In this document: one piece after another, positions 1 through 18,706 of the stretch
Position numbering within the stretch: position 1 is the first letter of the stretch
Layout of the letters: every line of letters starts with the position of its first letter
DNA from: Parcubacteria group bacterium GW2011_GWA2_37_10
GTDB lineage: Bacteria; Patescibacteriota; Minisyncoccia; Minisyncoccales; Staskawiczbacteraceae
Direction of reading: 5' to 3'
DNA: 35,033 nt
Assembly (NCBI GenBank): GCA_000992015.1
Contig: LBSQ01000004.1
Location: forward strand, 1 to 35,033
Made by a program: the position numbers and the translations under genes
Notes under the pieces: model-generated
Told to the model about the DNA's origin: nothing
The model's database searches: none
The model's input: the letters and a program-made list of their open reading frames with translations, nothing else

Positions 1-896
1 TTTCTTTGGGAATTACAATTGAGGATAGGTTAGTAAGCATAGCGAGGTTGGCAACGGAAAAATTTAGCGCGCAAACAGCCGATATTTCAAAATTACAAAT
101 GAGGGACGAGGATACAGGCGAAATTTATTGTGTTTTGATAAAAGCCGGAGAGTTGATAAAAACAAAGGGCGAGTGCGGCTCAACTGTTGTTTTAACAACA
201 GGGCAGTTGACACAAACAACTGAACAGACTCAGCAAGTCGTTAATCAAGCCCAACAGGTTGTCCAGCAGGCTCAACGGGCGGCAAATAATGCTTTAGAAA
301 CAACAGAAAATGCTAAACAGGCAGTTGATGAAAGAGTTCAAGAGGTAATACAACAAGCGGCCGAAACTGCCAATAAAACAGCCAAAGAAGCGGTTTCTAA
401 TGCAAAAGAAGAAATAAAACAGGAAATTAAGCAGGAGATTAAACAAGAACAGGCAGAAACTAATAATCAAGCGCCCGGAAACATAAACAGCAATACGGCA
501 AGCCCTGCGCTAGAAAATCTGCCCGAAGCCCAATCTGCGCCGGTTACGCAAATTGAGCCGCCACCGACCGAATCTAATACTAATACTCAGACCTTAACTC
601 CTAAATCCCAAGAAGAACAGCCGTCACCCGCTTCATCTGGAACTATGATAAGAAATGCGGCGGCAGGACTGGTAAAATCAATGTGGGAGTTTGCGAAATG
701 GATTTTTAGAGTACCTTTTAAAAAAGTGTCAGAATTATTGCCCGAGAGCGCCAAGGAATCAAGCGCCGCATTAATGCAAAAAACAGGTGATTTTGTTGAA
801 AAGGCGTTAAATACGGATTTTAAAACGATGTCATCAGGCATCAAATCAATCGCCGACGCGGTGTTTTATCCTGCGCAAAAAATATTTAGAAAATAA
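1..896 (+). CDS. hypothetical Gln/Lys/Glu-rich coiled-coil protein, C-terminal part (5' end outside the window)
   Basis: The frame is open to the window edge; the track start at 6 is only the first in-frame TTG. Low-complexity QQVV and EIKQEIKQEIKQ repeats, a Pro/Thr-rich linker, stop TAA at 894-896. No catalytic motif recognised. Confidence 0.6.
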   Translation, partial: SLGITIEDRLVSIARLATEKFSAQTADISKLQMRDEDTGEIYCVLIKAGELIKTKGECGSTVVLTTGQLTQTTEQTQQVVNQAQQVVQQAQRAANNALETTENAKQAVDERVQEVIQQAAETANKTAKEAVSNAKEEIKQEIKQEIKQEQAETNNQAPGNINSNTASPALENLPEAQSAPVTQIEPPPTESNTNTQTLTPKSQEEQPSPASSGTMIRNAAAGLVKSMWEFAKWIFRVPFKKVSELLPESAKESSAALMQKTGDFVEKALNTDFKTMSSGIKSIADAVFYPAQKIFRK

Positions 897-917
897 AATA
901 ATATTAACAAATTATTT

Positions 918-3068
918 ATGTTAAAAGAAACATCGCTTACAGTAAAAATTTGCGGCTGGATAACAAAATATAGTATTTACGTTTTAGTATTCCTGATGCC
1001 GATTTTGTTTTTGCCGTGGACATCAGAGGTTCTTGATTTTAACAAACAAGCACTGCTGATTTGCTTGGCTTTTATTTCATTTTTTAGCTGGATGTTAAAA
1101 GTTTTAATTTCCGGAGAGTTTAAAGTGAATATAAACAAAGTTCATATATTTTTAATAATTTTATTTCTGGCTTATTTGTTGTCAACCGTTTTTTCAATTG
1201 ACAGGTACGGCAGTTTCTGGGGCTGGCCGCGCGTTACTTCAGACAGTCTGTTGTCAGTAATTGGCCTGGTTATTTTTTATTTTGTAGCGAGCAATGTTTT
1301 TTCAAAGAAAGAGATTACAGCGTCGGTTTATATATTTTCGGTTTCAGCCTTAATTGCTGAGATATTCGGAGTTTTGCAGTTTTTTGGATTATTTATCGTT
1401 CCGCTGGGTTTTACTAAAAATGTTGCTTTCAACACAATAGGAAGCGCGGGAGGGTTGGGTATTTTTGCCGCAACATTGCTTCCATTGACAATTGTTTTAT
1501 TGATTAGCGCAAGAAAGTGGTCAAAACTGCTGTTTGCCGCAGAAATATTTTTTTCAGCGGCGATATTGTTATTAATTAATTTTTCCATGGTTTGGTGGAC
1601 AGTTGTTTTTGGAACCGCCCTGCTTATGATATGCGGGCTTTTCAAAAGAGACCTTTTTGACGGACGATGGATGGCTCTGCCGATGTTTTTTATGGCAGTA
1701 TCCCTGTTTTTTATAATTTTAAATCCCCAAATAAATTGGCTTCCGCAAAAAATAAATGAAGTTTCCTTGTCAAAGGATGCTAATTTTCAAATAGATATCC
1801 AAATCTTTAAGGAAAAGCCGGTTTTTGGATCGGGGCCCGGAACATTTTCCTACAATTTTTCAAAGTTTAAAAGTCCGGATTTTAGTAAGACAGCTCTGTG
1901 GGAAGCGGTTTTTAATAACGGAAATTCAAAAATTATGACAAGTCTGGCGACTGTCGGAGGATTTGGTATTTTGGCTTTCTTGGCATTGTCTGCCGCGATT
2001 ATTTTTTATGCCGGAAAATTTCTTTTTGTTAATAAAAACGATTCAGGCCAGGATATATTTTATTCTATTTTGGGTCTGGGGTTGTTTATTTCTTTAGTCA
2101 CAGAAATTGCATCATATTTTTTGCACAATTCAAACCTCTCTTTGGATTTCTTATTATTCTTTTTAATGGCGGTTTTGGTGGGTTTAATTTTCGGTGAAAG
2201 AAAAGAATATGATTTAAAGCCGTCTTCATTATTAACTCTGTTCGTTACCTTCACTTTTACGTTGGTTTTTATTTTCGGATTGGGACTTTTAATTTTAGGC
2301 GGTCAGAGATATGCCGCAGAAGTAAGCTACTATAATAGCTTGAATGCCCTGCAATCTGGCAGATTGGACGACGGAATCAAAAACCTAGAGAACGCCGCCT
2401 CTGCAAATTCAAACGTTGATTTGTATTTTAGGCAATTATCTCAGGTTTATCTTTTGAAGGCGCAAGATGTGTTATCAGATAAAAGCAAATCTCAAGGCGA
2501 CAAAACGAATACAATCCAGGTTTTAGTTTCAAATTCCATAAATGCGGCAAAAATAGCGACTGATTTAAATCCGAAAACCGCTGGTAATTGGCTGGTCAGA
2601 GGATATATTTACCAGAATTTAAATGGTTTGATAAGCGATTCTTCAACATGGGCGATAAATTCATATAATGAAGCTTTAAAATTAGATCCTAACAATCCTT
2701 ACTCTCTAACTCAGTTGGGAGTTATTTATTATCAGAATAAAGATTATCAAAACGCAAAAACAAATTTAGACCAAGCTCTAAATTTGAAGCCCGATTATTC
2801 CAACGGATTATATTTTTCCGGATTGGTATTTGATCAGCTTGGCCAAAAAGCCAAAGCTATCGAACAATTTACTGTATTATCTAAATTAAATCCCGCCAGC
2901 TCGATAGACATACAAAAAATTATTGATAATCTAACGGCCGGCAACGGCGCGTTAGACGGTTTAGTTCAGCAAACCCCGACGCCCGAAACTCCGGAAACGT
3001 TAGCGCCAAACCAAAACACAAATCCGCAGACAATACCCAAAACCGAAGCCCAGCCAATAAAAAAATAA
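918..3068 (+). CDS. polytopic membrane protein, O-antigen ligase (Wzy_C)-like core with C-terminal TPR repeats
   Basis: About 12 hydrophobic helices and a GSGPGTF loop typical of O-antigen ligase-like proteins. The C-terminal part has about 3-4 TPR-like units (ALKLDPNNPYSLTQLGVIYYQNKDYQNAKTNLDQALNLKPDY...). Confidence 0.65.
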   Translation: MLKETSLTVKICGWITKYSIYVLVFLMPILFLPWTSEVLDFNKQALLICLAFISFFSWMLKVLISGEFKVNINKVHIFLIILFLAYLLSTVFSIDRYGSFWGWPRVTSDSLLSVIGLVIFYFVASNVFSKKEITASVYIFSVSALIAEIFGVLQFFGLFIVPLGFTKNVAFNTIGSAGGLGIFAATLLPLTIVLLISARKWSKLLFAAEIFFSAAILLLINFSMVWWTVVFGTALLMICGLFKRDLFDGRWMALPMFFMAVSLFFIILNPQINWLPQKINEVSLSKDANFQIDIQIFKEKPVFGSGPGTFSYNFSKFKSPDFSKTALWEAVFNNGNSKIMTSLATVGGFGILAFLALSAAIIFYAGKFLFVNKNDSGQDIFYSILGLGLFISLVTEIASYFLHNSNLSLDFLLFFLMAVLVGLIFGERKEYDLKPSSLLTLFVTFTFTLVFIFGLGLLILGGQRYAAEVSYYNSLNALQSGRLDDGIKNLENAASANSNVDLYFRQLSQVYLLKAQDVLSDKSKSQGDKTNTIQVLVSNSINAAKIATDLNPKTAGNWLVRGYIYQNLNGLISDSSTWAINSYNEALKLDPNNPYSLTQLGVIYYQNKDYQNAKTNLDQALNLKPDYSNGLYFSGLVFDQLGQKAKAIEQFTVLSKLNPASSIDIQKIIDNLTAGNGALDGLVQQTPTPETPETLAPNQNTNPQTIPKTEAQPIKK

Positions 3069-3093
3069 ATTAATTTCCGCAACAATTTTAGGG

Positions 3094-5148
3094 TTGCAAA
3101 ATAAATTGGAAAAACAGTCTTTATTTTTAATTATTTTTCTTACGGTGTTTCTTGCTTTTTTTTCAGCTGAAGCAGTCTTGGCTGCTACGGGGACTATAAG
3201 CAGTTCTTACAAATATGCGTGGGGAAATTCCTCTGGCTGGATAAATTTTAAACCAACCAATGGAAATGTTTCCATTACCGATAATGCTCTGACCGGTTAT
3301 GTCTGGAGTGAAGTTTACGGTTGGATAAATTTGAATCCAGCAGGCAGCGGGATAAAAAATACCGCATCGGGCGTGCTTTCTGGATCTGCCTGGGGTCAAA
3401 ATACCGGCTGGATAAATTTTAGCGGAGTAACTATAAATTGTTCAGGAAGATTTGTCGGTACCGCTACAGGAGACGTTGTCGGCACAATTATTTTTGATTG
3501 CTCAAATTGCAATGTTACAACTGACTGGCGTCCAAGTTCTGGTTGCGGGGGAGGCGGGGGCCCGCCCCCGCCGCCTCCGCCGCCAGATTCGCACAATGAA
3601 TGCAATGCTCAAAAGCAGTGCGTTGCAGTAAGCGGGTCGGGAACCAGTCAATGCGCCAATGGCAATGATTGTAGCGCCCCAAAACATAACGAATGCAATG
3701 CCCAGAAACAGTGCGTTGCGATAGACGGAGAGGGCGATGAACAATGTCAAACAGATGTTGATTGCGCCCTTACGCACAGTGAGTGCAATAATAACGAGCA
3801 GTGTATATTTGTGTCGGGTTTCGGCTTAAACCAATGCGCAACAGACGTTGATTGCGGGCCCACTTACAATATTTGCAGTTCAATGCAGTGCGTTATTGCG
3901 CAGGGAATTGGCGCTGATCAATGCCAAAAAAATGAAGATTGTGTTTTTGAAATTTCGCCTGAATCTCCGCCAGTATTGCCCCTGGAAATTCCCCCAGTAA
4001 TACCGCCTGAAAATTCTCCGGTAATACCACCAACAACACCTCCTGCATTGCCACCCGGGAACACAGGAATAATAAATACATCTGTAAAAGCAATTGAAAA
4101 TATAACACAAACAGTAAATAAACAAATTCAGCAAACCATACAAGCCTCAGCAGAAACAGCAAAAGTTGTAACAAAAAATATTCAAAAAGCAATTGAAACC
4201 AAGCAGGGTTCTCTGATAACCAAAACAGTTTCAACCGTTGGAGCTGTAGCGGCAACTGCAGAAGTTGCAATAGCGATTGTTTTTTCTCCAATGGAAATAT
4301 TTTTGTTTATTTTTAGGTTGTCGGGCATTCTTTTGACTTCACTTGGTTTAAAAAGAAGAATCAAGCCTTGGGGAGTGGTTTATGATTCCGTCACAAAACA
4401 GCCGTTGGACCCAGCATATGTTGTTTTAAATGACCCCCAAGGAAAAGTTATTTCCTCTGCAATAACAGATATAGACGGCCGGTATGGTTTTTTAGAGCCT
4501 TCGGGAACTTACCAAATATCTGTCAATAAAACAAATTACGTCTTTCCGTCGCAAAAACTTGCCGGCAAAATAAACGACGAACTTTATAACGACCTTTATT
4601 TCGGAGAAAACATAGATATAGAACAAGGCGGGGAAACCATTACAAAAAATATTCCTATGGACCCTCTGAGGTTTGACTGGAATGAGTTTGCAAAGCGGGA
4701 CAAAAAATTAATGAATTTTTATTCGCGAGCGGATATAGCCCTAAGACGAATTTTTGATTTATTTTTTATAGTTGGGTTTGTGGTGGCTATTATAGCTTAC
4801 TTTGCCGCCCCTTACCCATACAACCTTATTATATTGACAGTTTATTTAATATTGCTTTTGTTAAGAACAATAGGCGTAAAGCCAAAAGCATACGGCAGAA
4901 TATTTAGCAGCGCTAACGGCAACCCTGTGTCCTTCGCTATTTTAAGAATAGTGATGCCTGATTCAAATGTGGAAGTCGCCCATAAAGTTGCAGATAAATA
5001 CGGAAGATATTATTGCTTGGTTCCAAAAGGAAAGTATTTTATAAAAATAGAAAAAAAGAACGATGACGGATCTTATTCTTTGGTTTATACTTCTTCCGTA
5101 ATTGACGCGTCTAAAAAAGGAATTATTAAAAACACTTTCCGGATATAA
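3094..5148 (+). CDS. large secreted/membrane-anchored surface protein (GWINF repeats, Cys-rich repeats, carboxypeptidase-regulatory-like domains)
   Basis: Signal-peptide-like N-terminus. Three SGWINF / YGWINL / TGWINF repeats, a G5P8 linker, four Cys-rich repeats of about 30 aa, a PPV/IPP spacer, TM helices and two beta-sandwich-like segments (DGRYGF..., KYGRYYCLVPKGKY). The start is TTG and uncertain. Confidence 0.6.
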   Translation: MQNKLEKQSLFLIIFLTVFLAFFSAEAVLAATGTISSSYKYAWGNSSGWINFKPTNGNVSITDNALTGYVWSEVYGWINLNPAGSGIKNTASGVLSGSAWGQNTGWINFSGVTINCSGRFVGTATGDVVGTIIFDCSNCNVTTDWRPSSGCGGGGGPPPPPPPPDSHNECNAQKQCVAVSGSGTSQCANGNDCSAPKHNECNAQKQCVAIDGEGDEQCQTDVDCALTHSECNNNEQCIFVSGFGLNQCATDVDCGPTYNICSSMQCVIAQGIGADQCQKNEDCVFEISPESPPVLPLEIPPVIPPENSPVIPPTTPPALPPGNTGIINTSVKAIENITQTVNKQIQQTIQASAETAKVVTKNIQKAIETKQGSLITKTVSTVGAVAATAEVAIAIVFSPMEIFLFIFRLSGILLTSLGLKRRIKPWGVVYDSVTKQPLDPAYVVLNDPQGKVISSAITDIDGRYGFLEPSGTYQISVNKTNYVFPSQKLAGKINDELYNDLYFGENIDIEQGGETITKNIPMDPLRFDWNEFAKRDKKLMNFYSRADIALRRIFDLFFIVGFVVAIIAYFAAPYPYNLIILTVYLILLLLRTIGVKPKAYGRIFSSANGNPVSFAILRIVMPDSNVEVAHKVADKYGRYYCLVPKGKYFIKIEKKNDDGSYSLVYTSSVIDASKKGIIKNTFRI
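3592..3942 (+). repeat. four tandem coding repeats (about 90 nt each) for a 4-Cys module, HNECNAQKQCVxxxGxGxxQCxxxxDC
   Basis: The first two units are near-identical at DNA level (cacaatgaatgcaatgctcaaaagcagtgcgttgc / cataacgaatgcaatgcccagaaacagtgcgttgc). Units 3 and 4 have diverged. Confidence 0.7.
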
Positions 5149-5164
5149 TTTGAAATTTAAAACA

Positions 5165-6502
5165 ATGTTTCGCGCTCTAAAAATTATTTACAATATCATA
5201 GCGGTGGTTCTCATCAACGTGTTTTTGATTTTTTTGACGGTTATAAACTTTTGGCTGTTTGCCAACGGCGAAGCAAAATTGATTTATATAATTATAGTTA
5301 TTTTTTCAATCGTCATATTTTTTACCGGCAGTTTTTTTATCATAAAAATAAACGGCCTCAAAAGAGAAAAAACAGCGCTGGTTAGGCTTTTGGAAAAAAA
5401 TGAGGAAAAATTAAAAATTTCGGAAATAGAAAAAAATATAATCTCTGAAGTTTTTTTTAATATCGGCGAAGGCATTTTAGTCATTGGTGGAAACGGGAAA
5501 ATTTTAATGATAAACCCGAAAGCTAAAAAGATTTTGGGTATAAAAGAGAAAGACATCAAAGGTTTGCCGGTCATAGATTTGGCGCGCCTGCCCGATATAC
5601 AGCCGATTGCGCCTTATTTATTATCTCAAAACATTGTTTTTAGGAAAGAGATAAAATTAAAATATTTTATTGCCGAGCTTTCCGTAATGCCGATATTTTT
5701 TGACTCAAGCCACGATGATTATAAAAAGGACGTTAATTTTCAACCAGAAAAAAATATGGGGAAATTGATAATTTTACGCGATATAACCCGCGAAAGTTCA
5801 TTGGAAAAAATAAAAAATGATTTTATCCTTTCAGCCGTTCACCAGTTAAAAACATCCGTAGCTTCGGTAAAGTGGTCGGTAAAAATGTTTTTGTCCGGAG
5901 ATTTCGGAAAAATTAGCAAAGAACAAAAAGATGTTGCCAAGAGGCTTTATGAAAGGAACGATGCGCTGATTTTTCTAATTGATAATTTATTGGATGCGGC
6001 GAAAATAGAAGACGGAGCATTTTTTTATAAAAAAACCTTAATTGACGTTCAGGATATTGTTGAATCTGCGATAATCTTTTTTCAGGATAAAATTAAAGGC
6101 AAGGAGATTAAAGTTAAATTTGAAAAGCCCTTGCAAAGATTGCCCAAAATAATAGTAGATAAGGAAAAAATAAGGTCCGTAATCCAGAATCTTTTTGACA
6201 ACGCTTTAAAATATACAAATGTCTGCGGGAGTATAAACGTTTTTTTGAAAAGTGACCAAAATAGCATAAAGTTTCAGATAAAAGATTCGGGCATAGGAAT
6301 TCCCATGGAACAACAGTCAAAAATTTTTAATAAATTTTTTAGAGCCGCCAATGCAAATAATATAGAAACTAACGGTTCTGGCCTCGGTCTGTTTATTGCA
6401 AAAAAAATTATTGAAGACCACGGCGGCAGTATTTGGTTTGAATCAGAAGAAAGCAAGGGAAGCGCCTTTTTCTTTACTTTGCCAATAGAAATGGTAGAAT
6501 GA
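5165..6502 (+). CDS. sensor histidine kinase (2 TM, PAS-like, HisKA, HATPase_c)
   Basis: H-box SAVHQLKTS, N-box DNALKYT, G-boxes DSGIGIP and GSGLGLFIAKKIIEDHGG. Start moved from track position 5102 to the first ATG (5165), because 5102 overlaps the upstream gene. Confidence 0.85.
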   Translation: MFRALKIIYNIIAVVLINVFLIFLTVINFWLFANGEAKLIYIIIVIFSIVIFFTGSFFIIKINGLKREKTALVRLLEKNEEKLKISEIEKNIISEVFFNIGEGILVIGGNGKILMINPKAKKILGIKEKDIKGLPVIDLARLPDIQPIAPYLLSQNIVFRKEIKLKYFIAELSVMPIFFDSSHDDYKKDVNFQPEKNMGKLIILRDITRESSLEKIKNDFILSAVHQLKTSVASVKWSVKMFLSGDFGKISKEQKDVAKRLYERNDALIFLIDNLLDAAKIEDGAFFYKKTLIDVQDIVESAIIFFQDKIKGKEIKVKFEKPLQRLPKIIVDKEKIRSVIQNLFDNALKYTNVCGSINVFLKSDQNSIKFQIKDSGIGIPMEQQSKIFNKFFRAANANNIETNGSGLGLFIAKKIIEDHGGSIWFESEESKGSAFFFTLPIEMVE

Positions 6503-6531
6503 TAAAATAGAATTATTATAATTTTAAAATT

Positions 6532-6900
6532 ATGCCAAAGAATGTTTTAATCATTGAAGACGACGAATTTTTAAGAGGTTTGATAAACAAAAAACTTACC
6601 GCAGAGGGCTTTAATATGATTTCTGCAATTGACGGGGAAGAAGGAATAAAAAAAGCCAAAGAAGAAAAACCGGATTTGATTTTGCTTGATTTGGTTCTGC
6701 CTAATGTTGACGGTTTTGAAGTTCTGTCAAAAATAAAAGAAGACCCAGTTTCCTCGTCAATTCCCGTGATTATTTTATCCAATCTTAGCCAGAAGGAGGA
6801 CATAGATAAAGGAGTAAAATTGGGAGCAGTTGACTATATTATCAAGGCGCAATTTACTCCGGAAGAAATTGTTGACAAAGTAAAAGCCATTCTGAAATAA
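6532..6900 (+). CDS. single-domain response regulator (CheY-like receiver)
   Basis: IIEDDEF acidic pocket, phospho-acceptor LLDLVLP, PVIILSN, conserved K in DYIIKAQ. No output domain. Confidence 0.9.
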   Translation: MPKNVLIIEDDEFLRGLINKKLTAEGFNMISAIDGEEGIKKAKEEKPDLILLDLVLPNVDGFEVLSKIKEDPVSSSIPVIILSNLSQKEDIDKGVKLGAVDYIIKAQFTPEEIVDKVKAILK

Positions 6901-6906
6901 ATAAAT

Positions 6907-6932
6907 AAAAAAACGCCGAAAGGCGTTTTTTT
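6907..6932. terminator. bidirectional rho-independent terminator
   Basis: aaaaaaACGCCgaaaGGCGTttttttt: GC stem flanked by an A-run and a T-run, between the receiver gene (+) and tRNA-Pro (-). Confidence 0.75.
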
Positions 6933-6936
6933 ATTG

Positions 6937-7007
6937 TCGGGGAAGGGAGAATCGAACTCCCACCATGCGCACCCCATGCGCATATCCTGCCGTTGGACCA
7001 TTCCCCG
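6937..7007 (-). tRNA. tRNA-Pro (anticodon GGG)
   Basis: The reverse complement folds as a cloverleaf: acceptor CGGGGAA/TTCCCCG, D stem GTCC/GGAT, anticodon stem TGCGC/GCGCA with loop AUGGGGU (U33, GGG, G37), T arm GGGAG-TTCGATT-CTCCC, discriminator A. CCA is not encoded. Confidence 0.85.
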
Positions 7008-7046
7008 TTTATTTTATATTACACCAAACCCCAAAAAAATAAACAC

Positions 7047-7075
7047 TTGTAATTATTTTGCGATGGGGCTATTAT
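7047..7075 (+). promoter_or_regulatory. candidate sigma70-type promoter of cassette A
   Basis: TTGTAA - 17 nt - TATTAT, about 40 nt upstream of the ATG at 7115. Confidence 0.4.
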
Positions 7076-7114
7076 CTACTTGGAAATCAGAACTTTGAAA
7101 AGGAGACGCGAAAT

Positions 7115-7330
7115 ATGGTGGCTTATGCAAGGCGGGGAAAACTGGGAGGACAAAAAGTACCAGACAATATTGAAGTTTGTTGGGATGCTGTTTTTCCGGC
7201 TGAGGCCAAAAGTTGGCTTGAGAACAACTACGGATTTAAAGTTCAAGTCGTTGACGGCGAAATAGTTGTGCCGCTATTATGTGAATCCGACTGCCAAGAT
7301 TTAGTCTCGCGATGGAATGAAAGAAACTAA
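7115..7330 (+). CDS. small hypothetical protein (71 aa), GC-rich cassette A
   Basis: AAGGAG at 7100-7105, 9 nt before the ATG. Noticeably higher GC than the flanks, and followed by a terminator. The track ORF 7058-7330 is trimmed to the SD-preceded ATG. Confidence 0.6.
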   Translation: MVAYARRGKLGGQKVPDNIEVCWDAVFPAEAKSWLENNYGFKVQVVDGEIVVPLLCESDCQDLVSRWNERN

Positions 7331-7363
7331 AGCGGCGTTTCAGCCGAAAAAACAGACACCTTA

Positions 7364-7390
7364 CCACTGATTTCGGTCAGTGGTTTTTTT
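7364..7390 (+). terminator. rho-independent terminator of cassette A
   Basis: CCACTGAtttcgGTCAGTGG followed by TTTTTTT. Confidence 0.75.
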
Positions 7391-7438
7391 CTGTCAGAAA
7401 ATAAGCTATCACAAAGAAAAATATAATTGTCAAATTTA

Positions 7439-7484
7439 AATCTCTGACCTTGTGGCTACGATCGTGAGTACAAGGTCAGAGATT
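7439..7484. terminator. 15-bp perfect inverted repeat (hairpin), possible second or bidirectional terminator
   Basis: AATCTCTGACCTTGT - 16 nt - ACAAGGTCAGAGATT, followed by TTATTT. Confidence 0.4.
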
Positions 7485-7511
7485 TTATTTACTTCTTTGT
7501 AGAAATTAAAA

Positions 7512-7541
7512 ACAGTACCGTGGACTGGTCCACGGTACTGT
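7512..7541 (-). terminator. rho-independent terminator of rpmB
   Basis: ACAGTACCGTGGAC tg GTCCACGGTACTGT. On the minus strand it is followed by TTTTAATTT, and it lies 22 nt past the rpmB stop. Confidence 0.7.
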
Positions 7542-7562
7542 GAAACTTTTATTAGTCGGTTT

Positions 7563-7766
7563 TTATACTTTGGATAAGCGTTTAATGCACTTGGCACAAG
7601 CGAGAACTCTTTTGCCTGAAGGCCTGCCTGCGCAGGCAGGCAAACGGACCCATTGCAAATTCGGGTATTTTCTTACTTTAGAAGTTGGGTTGTATTTTCC
7701 TCTTAATTTAACAAGGGTGACTCCCATTGCTGAATGTTTTTTGCAAATTGAACAAATTTTTTCCAT
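7563..7766 (-). CDS. rpmB: 50S ribosomal protein bL28
   Basis: CSICKK...PNLQWVRL...GKRVLACAKCIK matches the bL28 pattern. Contains an extra PACAGRPS segment encoded by a 20-nt palindrome. Confidence 0.85.
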   Translation of the reverse strand: MEKICSICKKHSAMGVTLVKLRGKYNPTSKVRKYPNLQWVRLPACAGRPSGKRVLACAKCIKRLSKV

Positions 7767-7876
7767 AGAGTATAAAATTGAAATTTAATAAATTTATGCT
7801 AACATTATATTTATTTTTTTGCAAGAATCTGTAATATGGTGTAATATAATAGAAGTTCATTCGTCATCAATTTAAC

Positions 7877-8521
7877 ATGTTTACTTTTGATATTATTTTA
7901 ATTTTCCAATTAATTATTCTAATTTTTTCTGTTATGATACATGAAATCGCGCATGGAAGCGTGGCTTATTCTTTGGGCGACCCGACAGCAAAAAACGAAG
8001 GAAGATTAACGTTAAATCCACTTAAACATATAGATGTTTTCGGTTCAATTATCTTGCCTCTTCTATTATTAGTCAGTTCTTTTGTATTGGGCGGCGGAGG
8101 CATAATTTTTGGTTGGGCAAAACCGGTGCCAATAAATCCTTACAATTTTAAAGATAGAAAATGGGGTTCGCTAAAGGTTGCGATTGCCGGTCCCGCAACT
8201 AATTTTGGCGTGGCGATATTTTTTGGGTTGATGATAAGATTTCTAAACTTGCCCGTTCAAACAAATTTTTTCCAATTTATCAGTATTATAGTAATTTATA
8301 ATTTTTCTCTTGGCATATTCAATTTACTTCCTATACCTCCGCTTGACGGGTCGCATATACTTTTCAGTATTTTACAGGTTCGTTCTCAAAAGGTAGTTAT
8401 GTTTTTCCAGCAATACGGCCTTCTGATACTGATATTTGTTCTTTTTTCCGGCGGTTTTTATTTTTTGAATAATATTATAGGTTGGTTTTTTTATTTAGTA
8501 ACAGGCGTAAATTTGTTTTAA
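7877..8521 (+). CDS. site-2 protease family (peptidase M50) membrane metalloprotease
   Basis: HEIAHG zinc motif in TM1, RLTLNPLKHID, a second motif NLLPIPPLDGSH, multiple TM helices. Confidence 0.85.
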   Translation: MFTFDIILIFQLIILIFSVMIHEIAHGSVAYSLGDPTAKNEGRLTLNPLKHIDVFGSIILPLLLLVSSFVLGGGGIIFGWAKPVPINPYNFKDRKWGSLKVAIAGPATNFGVAIFFGLMIRFLNLPVQTNFFQFISIIVIYNFSLGIFNLLPIPPLDGSHILFSILQVRSQKVVMFFQQYGLLILIFVLFSGGFYFLNNIIGWFFYLVTGVNLF

Positions 8522-8545
8522 GTCGGTTTTTACAGATGAAAAATG

Positions 8546-8574
8546 TTGACTTCGTTACTTTAATTTGCTAACAT
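8546..8574 (+). promoter_or_regulatory. candidate promoter of rpsL-rpsG
   Basis: TTGACT - 17 nt - TAACAT. The spacer ends in tgc, which gives an extended -10 (TGc). Confidence 0.5.
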
Positions 8575-8614
8575 AATCAGTATTAGGCGCCGAGCGCTTA
8601 TATTTTTTATTTTT

Positions 8615-9028
8615 ATGTGCCCAACAATACATCAGTTAATTAAGAAAAATAGAAAGAATATAAAAAAACGTAAAAAGACAGTTGCGTTGCAGTTTGGTTT
8701 CAACGTTTTAAAAAATAGGCCTTCATATTATTCCTCTCCGTTTAAAAGGGGAGTTTGCACAAAGGTTTTTACACAAACTCCCAAAAAACCAAACTCTGCT
8801 TTAAGAAAAGTTGCCCGTGTTAAATTATCAAATGGAATGGAGGTTACAGCTTATATCCCGGGAGTCGGTCACAATTTACAGGAACACTCGGTCGTATTGA
8901 TAAGGGGCGGAAGGGTTAAAGATTTGCCCGGGGTAAGGTATCATATTGTAAGGGGAGTTTTAGACACTGCCGGAGTTGAGGGCAGAAAACAGGAGAGAAG
9001 CAAATACGGAGCCAAAAAAGCTAAATAA
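8615..9028 (+). CDS. rpsL: 30S ribosomal protein uS12
   Basis: [40 protein letters not shown]. Confidence 0.95.
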
Positions 9029-9829: not shown

Positions 9830-9929
9830 AGCTGAACTCCTTGATTGGTGGTGAAAAGGACTAATAAAAATACATTACAAAATAAAATAAAAAAATCGCA
9901 ATGACGAAATAAATATAATTTGAAAATAT

Positions 9930-12038
9930 ATGTCTAGAGAACACGCTTTAGATACGTTAAGAAATATTGGAATTATCGCTCACATTGACGCAGGAAAAAC
10001 TACGTTCTCTGAACGGTTGCTTTTTTATACAGGAGTTTCGCATAAAATTGGAGAAGTGCACGAAGGAGATACAGTTATGGATTGGATGGTTCAGGAAAGA
10101 GAGAGGGGAATTACAATTACCTCGGCCGCCACAACAATGTACTGGAGAAATCATCAGATAAACCTGATTGATACTCCAGGCCACATTGATTTTACAGCAG
10201 AAGTGCAGAGGTCTTTGCGAGTTTTAGACGGCGCAGTTGTTGTTTTTGACGGAGTTGCCGGAGTAGAACCGCAATCTGAAACAGTATGGCGCCAGGCAGA
10301 CAAATATAATGTTCCGCGCATTTGCTTTATCAATAAATTAGACAGAATGGGGGCCAGTTTTGAAAAGAGTTTTCAGTCAATTTTGAATAAATTAACTCCG
10401 AATGCGGTGGCAGTAACCATTCCAATGGGATTGGAAGAAAAACTATCCGGAGTTGTAGATTTAATAAAAATGAAGGCGCTTTATTTTGAGGGAGAAAAGG
10501 GAATTGATGTTGTTGAAAAAGAAATTCCCGAAGAGTGGAAAGTTGAGGCCGAAATATGGCGCAGAAAAATAATTGAAAAAGTTGCCGGCGAAGATAATAC
10601 TTTGACGGAAAAGTTTTTAGAAGGAAAAGAAATTTCAGTTGAGGAAATAAAAAATGTTTTGAGAAAATCAGTTTTAAATTATAAATTGGTGCCGGTATTT
10701 TGCGGAAGCGCCTTGAAAAATAAGGGAGTGCAGACAATTTTAGACGCGGTTGTTGAATTACTGCCTTCGCCGCTGGACGTAGTTTCACAAAAAGGAACCG
10801 ACCCAAAAACCGGAGCTGTAATAGAAAAAAAAGCAGATGACAACGAACCGTTTTCAGCTTTGGTTTTTAAGGTAGCCACAGACCCCTATGTCGGAACTTT
10901 AACTTATTTTAGAGTTTATTCCGGAGCTTTGAATAAAGGTTCTTATGTTTTGAATGCAAATACAGGAGAACAAGAAAGAATTGCCAGAATTTTGAGAATG
11001 CACGCAGACGAAAGGCAGGAGTTAGATGTTATTTATGCGGGCGAAATTGGAGCAACTGTGGGATTAAAAGCAACAAGCACGGGCCACACATTGTGCGACA
11101 AAGACCATCAGGTTATTTTAGAAAAAATTGTATTTCCAGAACCGGTTATCGGAATTAGGGTTGAGCCAAAAACAAAAGCAGACCAGGAAAAACTCATTAT
11201 GTCTATTAGAAAGTTAACCGAAGAAGACCCAACTTTTAGAATTAAGGAAGATATTGAAACCGGCGAAACAATTATTTCCGGCATGGGAGAATTGCATTTG
11301 GATATTATTGCAGACAGATTAAAAAGAGAATTTAAAGTTGAGGCTAATTACGGCAAGCCGCAGGTGGCATATAGAGAAACAATTACAGCCGAAGCAAATG
11401 GAGAAGAAAAATATGTGAGGCAGTCTGGCGGAAAAGGACAATACGGACACGTATTATTAAAAATAAAACCAAAAGAAAGAGGAGCCGGTTTTGAATTTAT
11501 TGATGAAATTAAAGGGGGAGCCATTCCAAAAGAATTTATTAAACCGGTAGAAAAAGGAGTTATTGAAGCGTTAGATAAGGGAATTGTAGCCGGATATACA
11601 ATGGTTGATGTTGAGGTTACATTATATGACGGGAGCTATCACGATGTTGATTCGTCTGAATTCGCTTTTAAAATTGCAGGTTCAATGGCTCTTCAAAAAG
11701 CCGCCAGAGCCGCAAAACCGGTTATTTTAGAGCCGGTTATGAAAATTGAAATTGTAACTCCTGAAAATTTCTTCGGGCAGGTTATTTCTGATGTAAGTTC
11801 AAGAAGAGGAAAAATTGAAGAAACAAGCGAGAGGGTTGGAATGAAAGTTGTTGATGCCTTTGTGCCGTTGTCTGAAACATTCGGATACGCAACATCTTTG
11901 CGTTCGCTTACAGAAGGCAGAGCAAGCGAGCGTGGCAATCTAAGGTTTTTGTGCGTTAACTCTGGATTGCTTCGTCGTTTTACTCCTCGCAATGACAGTT
12001 ACGAGATAATTTTGCAAATAAAAAGCGCCTCGGTCTGA
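9930..12038 (+). CDS. fusA: translation elongation factor G with an aberrant, repeat-derived C-terminus
   Basis: [18 protein letters not shown] and all five domains are recognisable up to ...[11 protein letters not shown]. The last 36 codons ([24 protein letters not shown]...) are read from a P-element copy and a cassette terminator. Confidence 0.85.
11925..11998 (+). repeat. P-element copy P0 (mainly the right half), fused to the fusA 3' end
   Basis: ...GGCAATCT...AACTCTGGATTGCTTCGTCGTTTTACTCCTCGCAATGACAG is close to the right arm of P1 (17155-17220). Confidence 0.7.
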
Positions 12039-12139
12039 AATTTCTGTTTCAGCCCTCGGCGCGCGAGAGTTGCGAGAACTCTTTACAGCCGGCTTTGCGA
12101 AGCCCCTATTGAAGTCTTGCGCAATATTTTTTGCGGGTC

Positions 12140-12427
12140 TCAGTGTCGTTTTAATTTGCGACTCTCTTCGATGAGATCAATAAGGATATCGGCAAGATCG
12201 ACGAACCTTTGCGGCTCGGAAACTTTTTCCGGCGGCTCGGGAATTTCCCGCTTCATGACGGCTTCGTAGATTTTCCGTGGCTCAACCTTGCCGGGTGATG
12301 TTTCGACCAAAGTTTCCGTCTGTTACCAGCCAGTGCTTTCCCAGCCGAACTTGCCGCGCCCGTTCATCGCCATCACTAACGACTTGAGGCAGCCTCTGGA
12401 AACCTCATCGTATTTCCACCTCTTCAT
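12140..12427 (-). pseudogene. GC-rich cassette C: 95-codon frame interrupted by one in-frame TAA
   Basis: AAGGAG (12435-12440 on the plus strand) lies 7 nt before the ATG (12425-12427). Reads MKRWKYDEV...STGW, then TAA (12323-12325), then QTETLVE...ESRKLKRH and a stop at 12140-12142. Confidence 0.5.
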
Positions 12428-12487
12428 TGTAACGCTCCTTAAAATAGGGGTTGAGATGTCAAAAAGCGAACTTTGACCCGATTTTTA

Positions 12488-12516
12488 ATTATGCACCCGA
12501 TATGGGTATTTGTCAA
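12488..12516 (-). promoter_or_regulatory. candidate promoter of cassette C
   Basis: On the minus strand, TTGACA (12511-12516) - 17 nt - CATAAT (12488-12493). Confidence 0.45.
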
Positions 12517-12520
12517 TCGT

Positions 12521-12548
12521 TTGACAAGCGTTTGTGAAATGATAAAAT
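12521..12548 (+). promoter_or_regulatory. candidate promoter of the Zn-ribbon ORF; likely gives a leaderless mRNA
   Basis: TTGACA - 16 nt - TAAAAT. The ATG at 12555 starts 6 nt after the -10 box. Confidence 0.5.
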
Positions 12549-12554
12549 TATAGT

Positions 12555-12731
12555 ATGAATGTATCAAAATGCGATTTATGCAAAAAAGAAATTAAAGGAC
12601 AGCCATTAACTGTCGGTCGTGGATTTTTTCATGACGTAAAAGAAATATGCGACGACTGCGGTAAACCAGTTTTAGAGTTTTTAAGAAAAAATAAATTTAT
12701 TAAAGAAGAAAAAAATAATAAAAAAAATTAA
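12555..12731 (+). CDS. small zinc-ribbon protein (58 aa), CxxC...CxxC
   Basis: Not in the track because it is under 60 aa. MNVSKCDLCKKEIKG...ICDDCGKPVLEFL, Lys-rich tail, native low-GC composition, promoter directly upstream. Confidence 0.5.
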   Translation: MNVSKCDLCKKEIKGQPLTVGRGFFHDVKEICDDCGKPVLEFLRKNKFIKEEKNNKKN

Positions 12732-12735
12732 AAAT

Positions 12736-12996
12736 ATGCTTGATGAGCAGGATATAAGCAAAATAAAAAAACTTCTTGAGCCTCTCGCGACAAAACAAGA
12801 TTTGGAGCAAGAAAGAGATTTTCTGGCTAGAATGATGAAAAACAGTTTTGATGTAACGCCAACCAGAAACGAAATGGCAGAGGGTTTTAATATGATGCGA
12901 AATGAGTTTAAGTCTGTGAACGAAAAATTAGACAAAAAGTTGGAGGGCGTAGACAAAAGAGTGTCACATATTGAAGAATCTTTGGTTATAAAATAA
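12736..12996 (+). CDS. small coiled-coil protein (86 aa), function unknown
   Basis: ATG lies 4 nt after the previous stop. Heptad-like, charged sequence with native composition. Confidence 0.5.
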   Translation: MLDEQDISKIKKLLEPLATKQDLEQERDFLARMMKNSFDVTPTRNEMAEGFNMMRNEFKSVNEKLDKKLEGVDKRVSHIEESLVIK

Positions 12997-13046
12997 ATGT
13001 TTTTTTACAAAAACGATTAACTTCGCCTTTTTTTATTAATTGGGAG

Positions 13047-13075
13047 TTGACTTATTTTAAATAATATAATAGAAT
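13047..13075 (+). promoter_or_regulatory. candidate promoter of tuf-rpsJ
   Basis: TTGACT - 17 nt - TAGAAT. Confidence 0.55.
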
Positions 13076-13110
13076 ACAATAACATTATTATAAATTAAAC
13101 GAAGCAGGGC

Positions 13111-13161
13111 ATATCCTTCGCCTGCGGGCTCAGGATGATTTACTCGCTTCGCTCATAAATC
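13111..13161 (+). repeat. R1 leader element, copy 1 (tuf)
   Basis: ATCCT-TCG-CCTGCGGG-CTC-AGGAT hairpin, mini-ORF ATG ATT TAC TCG CTT CGC TCA TAA (13135-13158), then ATC and the tuf ATG at 13162. Confidence 0.8.
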
Positions 13162-14358
13162 ATGGCAACAGAAAAATTTGAGAGGTCTAAACCTCACGTA
13201 AACATTGGTACCATTGGCCACGTAGACCATGGAAAAACCACATTGTCAGCCGCAATTATGAAGGTTTCAAAATTGCGCGGTTTTAAGTCTTCAGACAAAA
13301 ACGTTGACCAAATTGACGCTTCGCCTGAAGAAAAGGCAAGAGGGGTGACAATTTCTATTACACATTTGGAATGCGAGACTCCAAAAAGGCACTATGCTCT
13401 AATTGACTGCCCCGGACACGCTGACTACATTAAAAATATGATTACGGGAGCCGCTCAAATGGACGGCGGAATTTTGTTAGTTTCAGCTCCAGACGGACCT
13501 ATGCCGCAAACCAAAGAGCACATTTTGTTAGCCCGCCAAGTTGGCTTGCCGAGCTTGGTTGTGTTTATGAACAAGTGCGACATGGTTGATGACCCTGAAA
13601 TTTTGGACTTAGTTGAATCTGAGGTAAGAGAACTTTTAAAGAAAAATAAATATCCTGGAGATGAAACTCCTATTATAAGAGGTTCTGCCCTGAAAGCTTT
13701 AGAAGCCACATCGGTTGATGATCCGGCCGTAAAACCTATTATTGAATTAATGGATGCTGTTGATAATTTTGTTAAGGAGCCCGTAAGAGAACTAGATAAA
13801 CCGTTTGCAATGGCAATTGAAGACGTGTTTTCAATTGAAGGAAGGGGAACAGTTGCAACAGGAAGAATTGAAAGAGGAGTTATAAAACCAAACGAAGAGG
13901 TTGAAATAATCGGTATAAAGCCAACACAAAAAACAGTTGTTGTTTCGGTTGAAATGTTCCAGAAATCGCTTGATGAAGGAAGAGCCGGCGACAATGTCGG
14001 AATTTTGTTAAGGGGTTTGAAAAAAGAGGATATTGAAAGAGGCCAAGTAATCTGCAAGCCCGGAAGCATTACTCCTCACACTGAATTTGAAGGAGAAGTT
14101 TATGTTTTATCTAAAGAGGAAGGCGGAAGGCACACCCCATTTTTTACAGGATACAAACCTCAGCTTTATATCCGAACATCAGACATAACAGGTGACGTAA
14201 CTTTGCCAGAAGGAACAGAAATGGTAATGCCAGGAGATACAGCTAATTTGAAAGTTAAATTGATTGCGCCGATCGCTCTGGAGGAAAAAGGAAATTTTGC
14301 TATTAGAGAAGGAGGCAAAACAGTGGGAGCAGGAGTGGTAACTAAAATAACCAAGTAG
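13162..14358 (+). CDS. tuf: translation elongation factor Tu
   Basis: [28 protein letters not shown]; full-length EF-Tu. Confidence 0.97.
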
Positions 14359-17124: not shown

Positions 17125-17130
17125 ACACTT

Positions 17131-17220
17131 CGTCATTGCGAGGAGCCCGCAGGCGACGCGGCAATCTGGAAACTCTGGAATTGCTTCGTCAGTCGCTAAA
17201 GCTCCTTCCTCGCAATGACA
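17131..17220. repeat. P element copy P1: about 90-nt imperfect palindrome
   Basis: CGTCATTGCGAGGAGC...GCGACGCGGCAATCT / ...ATTGCTTCGTC...CCTCGCAATGACAG. The outer 12-bp arms GTCATTGCGAGG/CCTCGCAATGAC are perfect. Confidence 0.8.
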
Positions 17221-17229
17221 GATACGACT

Positions 17230-17691: not shown

Positions 17692-17789
17692 TGCGATGCC
17701 AATATACGAATGACATACTAATAATACGAATAAACGAAAAACGATAACGTATTAGTATAATTAGTATGAATTAGTATATTAGAATCGCA
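17692..17789. repeat. AT-rich long imperfect hairpin filling the rplW-rplB spacer
   Basis: TGCGAT...AATATAC...ATACTAAT...AATACG / CGTATT...ATTAGTAT (x3)...GTATATT...ATCGCA. Confidence 0.6.
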
Positions 17790-17794
17790 CTAAA

Positions 17795-18630: not shown

Positions 18631-18706
18631 CGTTATTGCGAGGAGCGTAGCGACGAAGCAATCTAAACAATGCGTGAGATTGCTTCGTTACCGCTCGCAA
18701 TGACGG
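18631..18706. repeat. P element copy P2: about 76-nt imperfect palindrome
   Basis: CGTTATTGCGAGGAGCGTAGCGACGAAGCAATCT - 12 nt - AGATTGCTTCGTTACCGCTCGCAATGACGG. Confidence 0.8.

Follow-up and report, generated by a model that had tools for sequence, protein, structure and literature searches.

The palindromic elements of Rickettsia (RPEs) are among the closest described counterparts of the locus considered here; their insertions add residues to the host proteins, remove none of the host codons, and are fixed in the lineage. Further counterparts are intergenic palindromes such as REP/BIME, Correia/NEMIS, and other MITE-like sequences. As regards the affected protein, EF-G variants without domain V reportedly show a severe loss of translocation and turnover (Savelsbergh et al. 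2000, J Mol Biol), and in EF-G structures the last strand of that domain would be an edge strand of its ferredoxin-like sheet. Local assembly errors constitute a counterpart of a different kind: MAGs commonly contain them, IDBA-UD assemblies prominently so, and they put wrong protein sequences into databases; 13 were found in one 1.13-Mb CPR genome, and the defining criterion of such an error is that not one read supports the consensus (Chen et al. 2020, Genome Res, PMC7111523).

The window, that is, the whole stretch of 35,033 nucleotides analyzed here, is an entire contig (C4) of the 716-kb, 40-contig genome (G000) of Parcubacteria group bacterium GW2011_GWA2_37_10. By the order of open reading frames (ORFs) and synteny, its str operon retains the arrangement rpsL-rpsG-fusA-tuf with a single EF-G gene; tuf, the next gene of the operon (13162–14358, plus strand), is placed by the ORF list and by synteny with two relatives (L010 and L011). 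The fusA ORF occupies 9930–12038 on the plus strand and, in the ORF list of the window, translates into 702 amino acids that are canonical up to residue 666 (...TEGRAS) and are then followed by 36 unrelated codons. All five Pfam families of the EF-G architecture score above their cut-offs on this protein: GTP_EFTU, EF-G_D2, EFG_III, and EFG_IV are matched in full, and EFG_C is matched only over positions 2–70 of its 89-position profile, at residues 599–666. The canonical part (codons 1–666; 9930–11926, plus strand) comprises the G domain, domains II–IV, and domain V as far as ...TEGRAS, as delimited by Pfam and by identity with four independent loci (L016, L026, L027, and L028), and the aberrant 36-codon tail with its TGA stop (11927–12038, plus strand) is, by translation, read from non-coding DNA.

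Going by how its closest EF-G homologues are named, the genome falls within Staskawiczbacteria, a group of the Candidate Phyla Radiation. Identity to the EF-G proteins of Staskawiczbacteria amounts to 82–97%, and in the protein of the window domain V is incomplete, without its terminal strand and C-terminal helix, (F/Y)xMEFxxYExVP.... This canonical tail of 25 amino acids is carried by 187 of the 197 relatives and fragments with the motif LTEGRA[ST], among which the window protein is the sole full-length one with an unrelated 36-residue tail; in close relatives, EF-G totals 691–692 amino acids and ends in ...GRAS-FTMEFNKYEQVPGNIAQEIIEGKRK. Translation, Pfam matches, and alignment thereby confirm what the initial annotation had claimed, namely that the C-terminus of a canonical EF-G has been swapped for repeat-derived sequence.

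At the nucleotide level, the difference is a deletion. When aligned to two metagenome contigs that are 98.5% (L008) and 94% (L009) identical to it, the window is without 110 bp between ...GGCAGAGCA[AG] and [AG]CGAGCGTGGCAATC..., and this loss takes the last 25 fusA codons with their TAA stop, 13 bp of spacer, and, from the left arm of a P-element (a palindromic repeat described below), the outer 19 nt. The blastn comparison yields two HSPs with an overlap of 2 nt on the window side, between which 108 nt of the locus stay unaligned; the junction (11925–11926, plus strand) accordingly carries a microhomology of 2 bp, AG only, and the 110 bp are absent relative to every other assembly. By comparison with L008, L009, and L016, the remnant of the P-element (11925–11996) comprises the inner left arm (11925–11940), the loop (11941–11964), and the right arm (11965–11996), the outer left arm GTCATTGCGAGCGAGCCGC being deleted. 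Because the stop codon is lost, the frame reads through this remnant and 42 nt of flanking sequence (11997–12038) as far as a chance TGA, which creates the tail of 36 residues. The initial annotation had derived the tail from a P-element right arm and the terminator of a neighboring cassette C, which is nearly right, except that the inner left arm and the loop are also included. The missing C-terminal segment had been said to be absent from the vicinity, and this holds: the 25-residue EF-G end occurs in none of the six frames of 11880–13200.

The P-element is already present downstream of the intact fusA in other assemblies, where it folds into a long DNA hairpin of -22 kcal/mol (z -4.25); what is left of it in the window folds at -10.8 kcal/mol (z -0.29), no different from shuffled sequence. 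An intron, an intein, or a split gene can be set aside, because the flanks are collinear with those of intact relatives and a simple deletion is the sole difference.

The new fusA stop is supplied by the 3' flank of cassette C, a GC-rich ORF of 95 codons on the minus strand (12140–12427) that is recognized by translation, contains an in-frame TAA at 12323–12325, and has no Pfam match. This TAA is polymorphic, occurring in the window and seven other contigs and being replaced by CAA, with an intact 95-aa ORF, in two (L019 and L020); in the window, cassette C moreover carries a private K-to-E change close to its C-terminus. The independent MEGAHIT contigs L008 and L009 both end at the same point within cassette C (window ~12205), which suggests strain variation or a graph branch.

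Independent contigs for comparison were fetched by exact-sequence look-up of two small ORFs downstream of fusA (12555–12728 and 12736–12993). Four of them, a Rifle scaffold (L016, ERZ28564302) and MEGAHIT contigs from three other ENA assemblies (L026, L027, and L028), are identical to the window at 2031 of 2031 nt over 9896–11926 and at 99.5–99.9% downstream of the junction, and all four contain the extra 110 bp. Their EF-G is of 691 amino acids, shares 666 of 666 residues with the window protein, and ends in FTMEFNKYEQVPGNIAQEIIEGKRK. The intact fusA end is also found in L017, L018, L021, L008, L009, and L015, and in total ten other, independent assemblies have the intact 691-aa gene, with a complete P-element after it. 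In contrast to these same-population assemblies, the altered end is private to one: the 702-aa protein occurs on one contig only among ~15 billion proteins, a search of a 5.8-billion-cluster collection with the last 110 residues returned no other protein or fragment with the aberrant tail, and the junction is absent from JGI metagenome contigs, as queried with an exact 36-mer and a degenerate 25-mer. Sister lineages were also checked for the tail as a conserved, lineage-specific C-terminus; none shares it, and this explanation is rejected since no relative carries the tail.

The deletion at the end of fusA is accompanied by further private deletions. A second one, of 106 bp and likewise with 2 bp of microhomology, lies at 9895/9896, where L016, L026, L027, and L028 show a P-element in full, 24 nt ahead of the fusA ATG; these four loci have 106 nt extra and the window none. 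It takes the complete P-element and 13 nt of upstream flank, sparing the last 10 nt of the element, TCGCAATGAC, as a remnant at 9896–9905 (the feature as a whole spans 9895–9905). Over 3 kb around the two joins, L016 and the window differ by zero base substitutions. With these losses of 106 and 110 bp, the 2-kb fusA segment has a faulty join at either end, both of them at a multi-copy repeat and much alike in size. Site-specific excision of the P-element was considered and rejected, since the two deletions flanking fusA break at unrelated points relative to the element and thus reveal no shared site of cleavage.

A third private deletion, of 52 nt, affects the 3' end of an AbiEii-family toxin gene on another contig (C27:4247–4251), so that the product has 207 amino acids in G000 versus 226 in five independent contigs in which the gene is intact (L041–L045). 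Between 13,298 and 35,033, the window shows zero indels and 6–9 SNPs relative to the best contigs. The tally over the ~43 kb compared is three private deletions of at least 50 nt versus ~20 SNPs, with zero private insertions; the part of the window covered by independent contigs begins after 1–8770, and an exact look-up of the 466-aa protein encoded at 5102–6499 returned no match.

The P-element, a family not known to have a name in the literature, is an imperfect palindrome of ~70–130 nt with the conserved termini GTCATTGCGAG...CTCGCAATGAC. The 716-kb genome has ~18 complete copies and several single arms; most copies lie immediately next to a gene, on either side, and their presence differs from strain to strain. 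As a multi-copy, intergenic, strain-variable palindrome, it resembles REP/BIME, Correia/NEMIS, and the other MITE-like palindromes mentioned at the outset. Single P-arms are also read in frame, for instance in UvrB (C27:6329), as peptides such as SSLRGA..KQS or LLRRxAPRND, and further in-frame arms occur at C21:9601, C22:19308, C10:2716, C18:2295, and C1:18980, in genes that were named by eye and are apparently LeuRS, UvrA, and others. The UvrB arm is found in six independent contigs and is therefore real, which refutes, for UvrB, the proposal that all orphan P-arms are deletion artefacts; it seems to stand in for a native stretch about as long as itself, with no net addition. In having a short, multi-copy palindromic element translated within an essential protein, with other copies truly in frame as in UvrB, the locus is similar to RPEs. 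An RPE is inserted in frame without loss of host codons; here, 25 conserved codons have gone together with the stop, and the change is seen on a single contig and in none of the other assemblies.

Genuine gains and losses of small palindromes can be recognized in the same window. The P-element between rplD and rplW (17125–17229) is missing from a JGI contig (L034/L037), which has the clean empty site TAA-G-ATG (L034 1327–1329). Similarly, a 104-nt AT-rich palindrome, GCGATGCC...GAATCGC, lies between rplW and rplB (17694–17793) and is absent from L036 (1199–1202), where the rplW stop overlaps the rplB start as TAATG; this palindrome is a second kind of small mobile palindrome. Since the empty sites of L034/L037 and L036 are accompanied by nearby SNPs, they are natural insertion polymorphisms. 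Recurrent deletion artefacts of ~104 nt in the other assemblies are excluded by the same observation, as L034, L037, and L036 have clean empty sites with SNPs nearby. The fusA lesion differs from these natural polymorphisms in that conserved codons are removed, a broken element is left behind, and the background is otherwise identical.

On the strength of these sequence comparisons, the aberrant fusA end is probably a local assembly or scaffold-join error, and we infer that the bases were lost in silico rather than in a cell. The presence of the intact gene in ten assemblies, four of them base-identical, makes an assembly error the most likely source; moreover, fusA is single-copy and the lesion takes away the final strand and helix of domain V, so that on biological grounds a genotype carrying it is unlikely to be dominant, and the impaired translocation and turnover reported for EF-G without domain V likewise make such dominance implausible. 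Of the three explanations offered in the initial annotation, repeat-mediated misassembly is thus the best supported, but not in the form of two collapsed repeat copies: one of the breakpoints falls within unique coding sequence, the junction shares AG alone, and the 110-bp loss runs from unique fusA into the left arm. The 2-bp microhomology also rules out a plain de Bruijn k-mer collapse, so that scaffolding, gap-closing, polishing, or chimeric or real deletion-bearing molecules are needed. The same junction lends some support to the main rival, an unlikely one, in which the deletion is real but private: in a clone or subpopulation of the sequenced sample, the hairpin-forming P-element would have triggered illegitimate recombination or replication slippage that cost 110 bp, and this version of the gene would have entered the assembly. 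Its EF-G would probably be defective, and the allele would be rare, transient, or from dead cells rather than the working gene of the lineage. If the assembler was purely of the de Bruijn type, the junction must exist in some molecule; furthermore, one end of the deletion is inside a strong hairpin element, palindromic elements of ~100 nt are gained and lost between strains, and the 52-nt AbiEii deletion is a lesion of the type that occurs in toxin genes. There is also counter-evidence to an assembly error: the 52-nt deletion could be a genuine inactivating mutation, the presence or absence of ~100-nt elements between strains makes the region biologically dynamic, and the assembler crossed the other two P-elements of the window correctly (17132–17219 and 18632–18704). 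However, a real deletion has to contend with the intact allele in ten other assemblies, four of which are identical in the gene, and with losses of 106 and 110 bp on either side of one gene within 3 kb free of SNPs relative to L016, which would require two independent rare events, one of them striking a single-copy essential gene; a microhomology of 2 bp is, moreover, weak for slippage.

The remaining two explanations take the altered protein or its gene at face value. It is highly improbable that a viable strain has the replacement as a genuine, fixed, and tolerated change, with 36 repeat-derived residues in place of the final strand and helix of domain V, a segment such as NLRFLCV serving as a substitute edge strand. 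The occurrence of P-element arms in frame inside UvrB and, apparently, LeuRS, UvrA, and others, the reality of the UvrB arm in all six independent assemblies, and the expected position of the lost strand at the edge of the ferredoxin-like sheet speak for it, and, if true, it would take to an extreme the tolerance of this genome for repeat-derived peptides inside other essential proteins. Nevertheless, the tail is on one contig only, relatives keep the canonical tail almost invariantly, and 25 conserved codons are lost, unlike the pure insertions of the other in-frame cases. In AlphaFold2 models, the segment lost from the intact EF-G forms a strand (666–676) and a helix (679–686) of domain V, and the pLDDT of that domain falls from 72–83 in the intact protein to 48–65 in the aberrant one, with a tail at ~30; both models are poor overall (mean pLDDT ~57) because of the shallow alignment. 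The compromised integrity of domain V is shared with the EF-G variants that lack the domain, although only the last strand and helix are replaced here. Since same-population contigs have an intact fusA, the tolerated C-terminal replacement suggested in the initial annotation is unlikely. Its remaining suggestion, a disrupted fusA with a second copy elsewhere, fares worse: it is barely credible that this fusA is a pseudogene whose role is filled by another EF-G gene or by a C-terminal piece encoded on its own. At ~94% completeness, a copy could sit in the absent part of the genome. Against this, no second fusA is present in the 94%-complete genome, the EF-G C-terminal segment appears nowhere in the 40 contigs by tblastn and motif scan, so that there is no stray 3' fragment, and the 78 missing coding bases have no blastn match there. 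The only matches beyond fusA are partial, at 26–41% identity, in four open frames, namely tuf (C4:13201–13587) and three of 548–641 amino acids, and same-population contigs carry one intact fusA at this very locus.

An assembly error also fits the setting of the gene: the 2-kb fusA segment sits between two copies of a multi-copy repeat and strain-variable flanks, and linking it to its neighbors would have cost ~106 bp on one side and ~110 bp on the other. Up to 36 nt of a P-element arm can be identical to another copy in the genome, and co-occurring strains (L015, L017, and L018) have different sequences on either side of fusA. The presence of N-runs indicates that the genome was scaffolded, and the C27 deletion points to a further error in the same assembly. 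The P-element itself is only a bystander of the fusA lesion.

As judged from assembled sequences, the locus resembles the local assembly errors of MAGs in that a short consensus stretch departs from the true population sequence at a repeat and strain-variable site, in that several sites are affected in one small CPR genome, and in that an incorrect protein is now public, the 702-aa sequence being in NCBI nr (PMC7111523). It departs from them in being a clean deletion of ~110 bp with 2 bp of microhomology, neither scrambled nor N-filled.

Irregularities of other kinds were observed in the contigs used for comparison. One scaffold (L015; ERZ28563622 scaffold_20261) is, over 1–1864, a chimera of a dnaE fragment from another organism and the last 498 bp of fusA; the dnaE fragment is ~70% identical to the dnaE of G000, and the fusA part is 99.4% identical to the window with an intact C-terminus. 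Downstream of fusA, L015 has different sequence, with a simple terminator-like hairpin where the P-element would be. A MEGAHIT contig (L017, 1–218) repeats the 5' end of fusA (window 10132–9913) upstream of the gene, inverted and at 87% identity; this is either an assembly fold-back or a strain rearrangement. In a Rifle scaffold (L039, 6773–6999), 227 foreign nt ending in N10 are inserted within the triose-phosphate isomerase gene, at a site corresponding to window 30795/30796; here, scaffolding went wrong locally in a further assembly of this population. The chimera in L015 and the insert in L039 show that scaffolds from this population do contain local errors, in keeping with such an error at fusA.

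The 110-bp deletion is private to this contig, a second and a third private deletion exist in the same genome, and the same population holds the intact allele. The aberrant C-terminus is most likely neither a property of the EF-G of this organism nor a new kind of EF-G, and it has little biological weight because the EF-G of the organism is canonical. The genome that represents this species nevertheless carries a wrong EF-G, already in NCBI nr, and at least two more short private deletions; odd gene ends near repeats should therefore be checked against other assemblies before they are interpreted. The same cross-assembly check marks other repeat oddities of the organism as genuine: the in-frame arm of UvrB is present in every assembly compared, and two palindromic elements of ~100 nt in the spacers of the ribosomal operon vary in presence between strains.
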